From Escherichia coli (GTDB taxonomy: Bacteria > Pseudomonadota > Gammaproteobacteria > Enterobacterales > Enterobacteriaceae): a stretch of 202 nt of DNA. The position numbers were made by a program, and so were the translations under genes. The notes beneath the pieces are model-generated. The model worked only from the letters and a program-made list of their open reading frames with translations, had not been told where the DNA came from and made no database searches. Each line of letters starts with the position of its first letter. Position 1 is the first letter of the stretch. The stretch is taken from NCBI RefSeq assembly GCF_003334385.1, contig NZ_QOWN01000231.1. One strand, written 5' to 3'. Shown piece by piece: positions 1-202 of this stretch.

Positions 1-119
1 TTACAGAAAAAATACCGCTCACCGCCCTGTACCGTCAGGTCGATTTCCCAGAGCACCACCCGCGGTGACTGCTCTGACTTAACCGACTCGTTCAGACTTT
101 CTTCGTGAATATCCTGCAT
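1..119 (-). CDS. L: Phage tail tip / minor tail protein L (lambda gpL family), 5' partial: start codon plus first 39 codons, gene continues beyond window position 1
   Basis: Minus-strand translation from the ATG (read from 119 down to 117) gives MQDIHEESLNESVKSEQSPRVVLWEIDLTVQGGERYFFC with no stop down to position 3; positions 2-1 are the first two bases (AA) of codon 40. This closely resembles the N-terminus of lambda L as I recall it (MQDI...EQS..VVLWEIDLT..GGERYFFCN). It is the first ATG after an in-frame stop (TGA, plus 135-137), with an AGGTGG Shine-Dalgarno 7 nt upstream. All three plus-strand frames have stops inside this interval (106-108, 80-82, 66-68). Confidence 0.85.
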   Translation of the reverse strand, partial: MQDIHEESLNESVKSEQSPRVVLWEIDLTVQGGERYFFC

Positions 120-202
120 CAGTTCACCACCTGCTCAATCGTACAACTGAAATCACTGTACCTGGCGTTATCTGTGACGCTCCACTCCCGGCACACCACC
201 CT
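119..202 (-). CDS. M: Phage minor tail protein M (lambda gpM family), 3' partial: last 27 codons plus TGA stop at 119-121; gene begins beyond window position 202
   Basis: The minus-strand frame ending at TGA (plus 119-121) is open to the window edge and translates as RVVCREWSVTDNARYSDFSCTIEQVVN*. The ...EQVVN* ending and the Cys/Trp-containing stretch before it resemble the lambda M C-terminus as I recall it (...KVTCAKWSSRVSMLRVEFSAEFEQVVN*). Its position immediately upstream of L, with a TGATG stop/start overlap, matches the lambda M-L arrangement. Confidence 0.8.
   Translation of the reverse strand, partial: RVVCREWSVTDNARYSDFSCTIEQVVN
127..132 (-). promoter_or_regulatory. Shine-Dalgarno (AGGTGG on minus strand) for gene L, embedded in the last codons of M
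   Basis: Plus strand 127-132 is ccacct, which is AGGTGG on the minus strand, followed by a 7-nt spacer (TGAACTG) before the L ATG. This is a good match to the anti-SD complement at typical spacing, consistent with translational coupling to M. Confidence 0.55.

Follow-up and report, generated by a model that had tools for sequence, protein, structure and literature searches.

The window, the 202-nt stretch of Escherichia coli DNA analysed here, carries on its minus strand the 3' end of a gpM-family gene (distal tail protein M, 119..202) followed by the 5' end of a gpL-family gene (tail tip hub protein L, 1..119). Translation of the M frame gave 27 codons (202..122, minus strand) whose product, RVVCREWSVTDNARYSDFSCTIEQVVN, is the C-terminus of M, closed by a TGA stop at 121..119, and translation of the reverse complement of positions 1-119 gave MQDIHEESLNESVKSEQSPRVVLWEIDLTVQGGERYFFC, the first 39 residues of L, with the ATG at 119..117, codons 1-39 at 119..3 and the first two bases of codon 40 at 2..1. 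Stop and start codons share base 119 in a TGATG (117..121, minus strand), a 1-nt overlap that is read directly from the sequence; stop/start overlaps of this kind are customary for translationally coupled genes. An SD-like AGGTGGT (126..132, minus strand) lies inside the last M codons, 6 nt from its last base to the L start codon, and the depositors of the lambda imm21 record annotated a ribosome_binding_site at the homologous AGGT. With this putative initiation motif inside the M end and the TGATG overlap, M and L would probably be translationally coupled. Notable reading frames occurred on the minus strand only, with both the M and the L frame open to the window ends, and searches of the window returned 0 Rfam families at a permissive threshold, 0 sigma-70 promoter-like sites and 0 intrinsic terminators.

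A repeat search of the window found only short pairs containing GGTGGTG, matching RVV/QVV codons. The heptamer occurs three times on the minus strand (window 46-61, 120-134 and 186-201), within RVVC and QVVN in M and RVVL in L; considered as a meaningful element, these repeats were judged probably chance occurrences, and they are not Chi sites.

Both partial genes were assigned by homology. Using tblastn against phages, the L 39-mer gave E=4e-20 for identical matches and 3e-12 for lambda, and the M 27-mer gave E=6e-11, with 60 phage records at an identity of at least 99% and only 91 at no less than 95%. Full-length L, taken from a locus that matches the window exactly (L001), scored 362.1 bits on TIGR01600 (cut-off 70.75) and 306.2 bits on Pfam PF05100 (Phage_tail_L; E=1.1e-91), and it aligned with the solved lambda tail tip protein L (8iyk_L) at 419 bits across all 232 residues. 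The 39-mer alone reached 31.5 bits on TIGR01600 (E=1e-7), which is under the cut-off, as is usual for a fragment that covers about 13% of the model, and matched PHROGs minor tail protein families at 1e-17 to 1e-26. Full-length M of the same locus matched Pfam PF05939 (Phage_min_tail) at 98.9 bits (E=2.7e-28, residues 6-112 of 113) and phrog_14 at E=3.4e-36; no NCBIfam model matched M, and the M 27-mer alone had no profile match in NCBIfam or PHROGs but did retrieve M genes by tblastn. These BLAST and profile searches, by which an earlier note on this DNA had proposed to check its call of a gpL/gpM pair, thus returned significant matches to both families, and RefSeq names the product at a 100%-identical locus 'phage minor tail protein L' (WP_012601557.1).

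In lambda, gpM forms the hexameric distal tail ring and gpL contributes an HDI hub domain and a [4Fe-4S] domain to the trimeric tail tip, with C173, C182, C205 and C212 of gpL holding the [4Fe-4S] cluster (PMC10721106). All four cysteines (lambda numbering) are present in the L of the exact-match locus, outside the window, where they would be predicted to bind such a cluster, and among 58 L relatives C173, C205 and C212 were invariant and C182 nearly so. There is virtually no chance that the resemblance is a coincidental or non-coding match and that the window holds no tail protein genes: we found nothing in favour of that reading, and the E-values for the two short peptides, the frames open to both window ends, the identity to annotated M and L in E. 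coli chromosomes with a complete tail module, and the lack of any RNA family, promoter or terminator signal in the window all oppose it, and we regard it as refuted by synteny, HMM scores and tblastn E-values.

The window DNA was 100% identical in three complete E. coli chromosomes (strains 2013C-3033, SW070917 and JNEC-KY177), and matches to it occurred at 6380 places, spread over 1869 of the 5426 E. coli genomes searched (median 2 per genome, maximum 12). At L001 the genes run in the order terminase, capsid, portal, head-tail connector, major tail subunit, chaperones, tape measure, M, L, K, I and J, and the genes on the head side are annotated with names of the HK97 family, for instance 'HK97-gp10 family putative phage morphogenesis protein' or 'phage head closure protein'. 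RefSeq places the tape measure (H) at L001:8508-11750, M ('phage tail protein') at L001:11743-12084, L ('phage minor tail protein L') at L001:12084-12782, a C40 peptidase (K) at L001:12793-13536, a tail assembly protein (I) at L001:13533-14114 and gpJ at L001:14366-17896. The tape measure therefore lies upstream of M, and K, I and J lie downstream of L, which is the flanking order that the earlier note had suggested looking for.

Across phage records, identity to the L 39-mer was bimodal, with 147 records at no less than 95% and a second set of 119 at 60-80%, the lambda group standing at 71.8%. The 96 records with a 100% identical 39-mer were nearly all long-tailed Stx1a-, Stx2a- and Stx2c-converting phages and their relatives, and the prophage is of a type common to many long-tailed Stx1- and Stx2-converting phages. 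The window is not near-identical to lambda DNA: its L portion shares 71% and its M portion 51% identity with it. We hold it very probable that in this window M meets L within the late (tail) operon of a lambdoid E. coli prophage that is not lambda itself; this high confidence covers jointly the identity of the junction and two further elements developed below, a relaxed N-terminal arm of L and a 25-nt island that would serve as an exchange patch.

Three further features of these loci were observed in passing. The portal gene of the exact-match prophage (L001:2771-5517) is annotated as a frameshifted pseudogene, and this copy may be defective and may yield no virions, or the assembly may have an indel error; other carriers of window-type sequence are on record as complete genomes of Stx phages. 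Immediately downstream of the tail fibre genes, L001:20862-24202 encodes a YadA C-terminal-domain protein and a large peptidase of the S6 family, which, to judge by its family name, might be a SPATE-type autotransporter; the two may be virulence cargo at the prophage end or belong to the adjoining chromosome. In PhiR12_1 (L007:1975-2538), opposite-strand hypothetical genes are annotated right after L, where K is expected, and either a moron-like insertion or a rearranged L-K interval may account for them.

The first 39 residues of lambda L, MQDIRQETLNECTRAEQSASVVLWEIDLTEVGGERYFFC, were read from NC_001416 and agreed letter for letter with the lambda L sequence given in the earlier note. In an ungapped comparison 11 of the 39 residues differed (5, 6, 8, 12, 13, 14, 15, 19, 20, 30 and 31), so that the estimate of roughly 11 differences, mostly at residues 5-20 and 30-31, proved exact in number and all listed positions fit; residues 21-29 (VVLWEIDLT) and 32-39 (GGERYFFC), which that note had called conserved, are both identical to lambda. 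At the codon level, 11 of the 39 codons differ non-synonymously and 9 only synonymously. DNA identity to lambda was 92% in codons 1-4, 52% in codons 5-20 and 82% in codons 21-39. The variable segment, codons 5-20 (60..107, minus strand), differs from lambda at 9 of 16 residues and would lie in an N-terminal arm before the first predicted beta-strand of the HDI beta-sandwich. Downstream of it, codons 21-29 lie in a 26-nt run identical to lambda (34..59, minus strand) that encodes the predicted first beta-strand, and codons 30-31 (27..32, minus strand), which read VQ here and EV in lambda, fall in the turn between two conserved strands and have the top entropy of that turn (2.52 and 2.19 bits).

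Taken as a block, the first 39 L residues showed no significant excess of differences from lambda over the remainder of the protein (11/39 vs 42/193, Fisher p=0.41). Residues 5-20 were enriched in differences (9/16 vs 44/216, p=0.003), with the limits having been chosen post hoc, and a second patch of like divergence lies outside the window at residues ~131-147. Codons for residues shared between the window type and lambda were identical in only 61% of cases across L, which puts synonymous sites near saturation.

The same stretch varied across the family. In 64 full-length gpL relatives, clustered at 90% identity and 69-95% identical to the query, residues 5-20 had a mean column entropy of 1.18 bits against 0.70 overall, the highest of any 16-residue window, which bears out the description of this region as a variable stretch. 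Entropy was near or above 2 bits at positions 5, 12, 15, 20, 30 and 31, and E11, L23, W24, E25 and D27 were invariant in a 58-sequence aligned subset. Family models begin late on L, at residue 11 for TIGR01600 and residue 31 for Pfam PF05100, and the alignment with an F2-pyocin hub protein begins at residue 19. The AF2 model of L built from the 58-sequence alignment was poor overall (mean pLDDT 58, pTM 0.54, residues 1-15 and 156-232 below 50) and was used for the two N-terminal strands only: these were predicted at residues 20-27 and 35-39 with pLDDT about 80, and residues 1-15 were unstructured at pLDDT below 50. The model is weakly consistent with residues 1-15 being a flexible N-terminal arm ahead of the beta-sandwich. 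A literature search found no described function for the gpL N-terminus, and the tail-tip papers treat residues 1-166 as one HDI domain; the cryo-EM papers resolve full-length gpL and do not describe contacts of residues 1-20. We suggest that residues 5-20 belong to a weakly constrained N-terminal arm, with relaxed constraint as the probable cause of their variability; the differences from lambda would then cluster there because the stretch precedes the first conserved beta-strand and is variable family-wide.

Partial blastn matches located a mosaic boundary inside the window. Among the sampled matches, 28 of 36 began at nt 65 in minus orientation, 4 at nt 70 and 4 at nt 132, and the nt-65 start held both at 93-99% identity (phages with window-type L and lambda-type M) and at 74-77% (lambda type). 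The boundary, at which DNA homology to phages of the other M type ends, corresponds to position 138 (minus strand), 19 nt upstream of the L ATG. On its two sides alleles were combined differently: in Stx2_KH16-043 and PhiR12_1 an M of the lambda type (identity 80% to lambda M and 44% to window M) precedes a window-type L (94-99% identical, N-terminus 100%), the L of PhiR12_1 being 99% identical overall, and in vB_EcoS-689R5 a window-like M (67%) stands before an L that is lambda-like (93%). All four combinations of M type and L type were found among seven loci, lambda and the window type included. These results showed a sharp homology boundary and reassortment of M and L alleles, as the earlier note had proposed in describing mosaic tail modules.

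This reassortment also bears on whether the N-terminal variation is adaptive, with residues 5-20 co-evolving with a partner (gpM, gpJ or the side-fibre collar) or escaping a host factor that recognises the tail tip. In such a case one might point to variable positions that recur family-wide, at about 2 bits or more at 5, 12, 15, 20, 30 and 31, beside the invariant E11, L23, W24 and E25. However, one and the same L N-terminus occurs beside two M types that share only 44% identity (L001/L004 vs L003/L007), contacts with the side-fibre collar are known for gpV and gpM and not for gpL (PMC12617516), and the saturated synonymous sites of the segment allow no dN/dS on the window-lambda pair. Co-evolution with gpM in particular is unlikely because an identical L N-terminus occurs with such different M proteins, and overall we consider an adaptive origin very unlikely in comparison with a relaxed arm.

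Right beside the boundary lies a 25-nt island, CAGGTGGTGAACTGATGCAGGATAT (109..133, minus strand), which codes for QVVN-stop/MQDI, holds both AGGTGGT and TGATG, and shows no mismatch among the window type, lambda and Stx2_KH16-043. When the window type is aligned with lambda over M and L, this island is among the two longest runs of perfect identity, and upstream of it different M types share only about 50% of their sequence. Coding constraint stacked on translation-initiation constraint would keep the island alike between M alleles that are otherwise unalignable. Because alignability between M types ends right beside it, we propose that the island is probably the homology patch for exchange of M and L alleles among co-resident lambdoid prophages, with crossovers falling within it; selection of illegitimate joints would be the other route to such a boundary. 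A stronger version, which we put forward tentatively and regard as possible though doubtful, is that the island is a preferred crossover site, beyond being a by-product of coding, for reassorting M (with upstream H) against L-K-I-J alleles among lambdoid prophages of EHEC-type E. coli, with codons 5-20 as a second, smaller exchangeable or diversifying segment. If the island is such a crossover site, the lambdoid tail module has a defined functional seam in this window.

Codons 5-20 could themselves have been replaced as a separate micro-module, swapped by recombination between flanking conserved islands and not altered by drift. The drop in DNA identity to lambda to 52% in these codons, from 92% before and 82% after them, would fit such a swap, as would their position between the two longest identical runs of the M-L stretch (25 and 26 nt). 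The homology of HannyBb, Ayreon and PhiR40_1, whose matches to the window start no earlier than minus-orientation nt 132 (L codon 17), with DNA homology lost upstream, points the same way, as does the identity of the N-terminal 39-mer, which in nearly all divergent allele pairs among the seven loci was below that of whole L (for example 82 vs 91 and 74 vs 91). However, the two flanking runs are not outliers, as other parts of L have runs of 23, 23 and 20 nt, and in the seven loci the N-terminal type always matched the type of the rest of L, with no window-type N-terminus seen on a lambda-type L body. Since the flanking runs barely exceed others in L, replacement of codons 5-20 is not proven over fast drift, and we judge a separate exchange unlikely and retain the weakly constrained arm as the preferred reading of this segment.

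Comparison of the L-K region across loci also touched on the annotation of lambda itself. The 148-nt 'intergenic' gap between lambda L and K (L002:5129-5276; NC_001416 14128-14275), compared with L008:2700-2848, L010:801-1544 and L001:12793-13536, encodes MTQTESAILAHARRCAPAESCGFV...GEPEA. Its homologue in other lambdoid phages is the N-terminal stretch of ~46 residues with which their 247-aa K (C40 peptidase) begins, but in lambda it is out of frame with the annotated 199-aa K. The lambda reference reads GAGGC-TATTTCC where lambda imm21 reads GAGGCGTATTTCC, and a 60-mer with the extra G was at least 99% identical in 39 phage records, the 100% matches among sampled records including lambda imm434, DE3, DN1 and O276. 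With the extra G, K has 247 aa and starts 6 nt after L, as RefSeq annotates it in O276; the depositors of DE3 and imm21 retained the 199-aa K call. The comparison suggests a 1-nt error or a strain polymorphism in the lambda reference, and that an N-terminal region of gpK is absent from the standard annotation. In addition, lambda gene I (L002:5774-6445) is annotated 33 codons longer at its 5' end and overlaps K by 103 nt, whereas in the prophage (L001:13533-14114) and in O276 (L010:1541-) the start of I overlaps the K stop by 4 nt; the lambda I start may be another annotation difference.

The genes, the L variant (WP_012601557.1) and the phage group are already catalogued and nothing here is new: mosaicism of lambdoid tails is textbook knowledge, and the divergence of the L N-terminus from lambda is ordinary phage mosaicism. 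What the analysis adds is a mosaic boundary inside the window mapped to + coordinate 138. Because the same L allele occurs across this boundary with M proteins that are 44% identical, the gpL N-terminus needs no matched gpM type, which is a modest constraint for the engineering of chimeric lambda-like tails or for typing Stx prophages by tail genes.

Compared with lambda, the L protein is alike in length and in its cluster cysteines: lambda gpL (PDB 8IYK chain L; NP_040597.1) and the window-type L both have 232 residues, align without gaps at 77% identity and share the four [4Fe-4S] cysteines, and the TGATG overlap is also present in lambda, where the M end and L start share base 13429. They differ by 53 substitutions, of which 11 fall within residues 1-39, among them lambda C12, which is S in the window L, and DNA identity over L is 75%. 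Protein identity to the lambda tail module was 26% for H (C-terminal part only), 45% for M, 77% for L, 91% for K, 67% for I and 67% for J, and this comparison supports the earlier note's reading of a lambdoid prophage distinct from lambda.

The window-type M resembles lambda gpM in belonging to the PF05939 family, in its place between H and L, in its last four residues (QVVN) and in the junction DNA, but is only ~45% identical to it, with 113 aa against 109 aa. Its annotated start is a GTG (L001:11743-12084) and the protein begins VAEIKTLHLV, whereas lambda M (L002:4101-4430) begins MKTFRWKV. In Ur-lambda, K2 and W6 of gpM contact the collar of the side tail fibre (Stf) (PMC12617516), and the window-type M is without these two collar-contacting residues; the M type might go with the side fibre or collar type of the phage.

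Exchange of lambdoid modules at short conserved sequences has been described as homeologous, Red-mediated recombination (Martinsohn, Radman and Petit 2008, PMC2327257). The present junction departs from that model in that the island is only 25 nt long and that the constraints of coding, SD and stop/start could by themselves explain its conservation. It agrees with the model in that relatedness shifts abruptly where two genes meet, next to a short conserved patch, in the reassortment of alleles on either side, and in the presence of up to 12 copies per genome as possible partners. The closest relatives are the Stx-converting lambdoid phages, some of which have a lambda-type M upstream in place of the window-type M; in Stx2 phage 1717 (NC_011357), YYZ-2008, Stx2_EH2201 and PhiR12_1 the 39-residue N-terminus of L is identical to that of the window, with essentially no difference, and in Stx2_EH2201 and others the window DNA as a whole is 98.5% identical.
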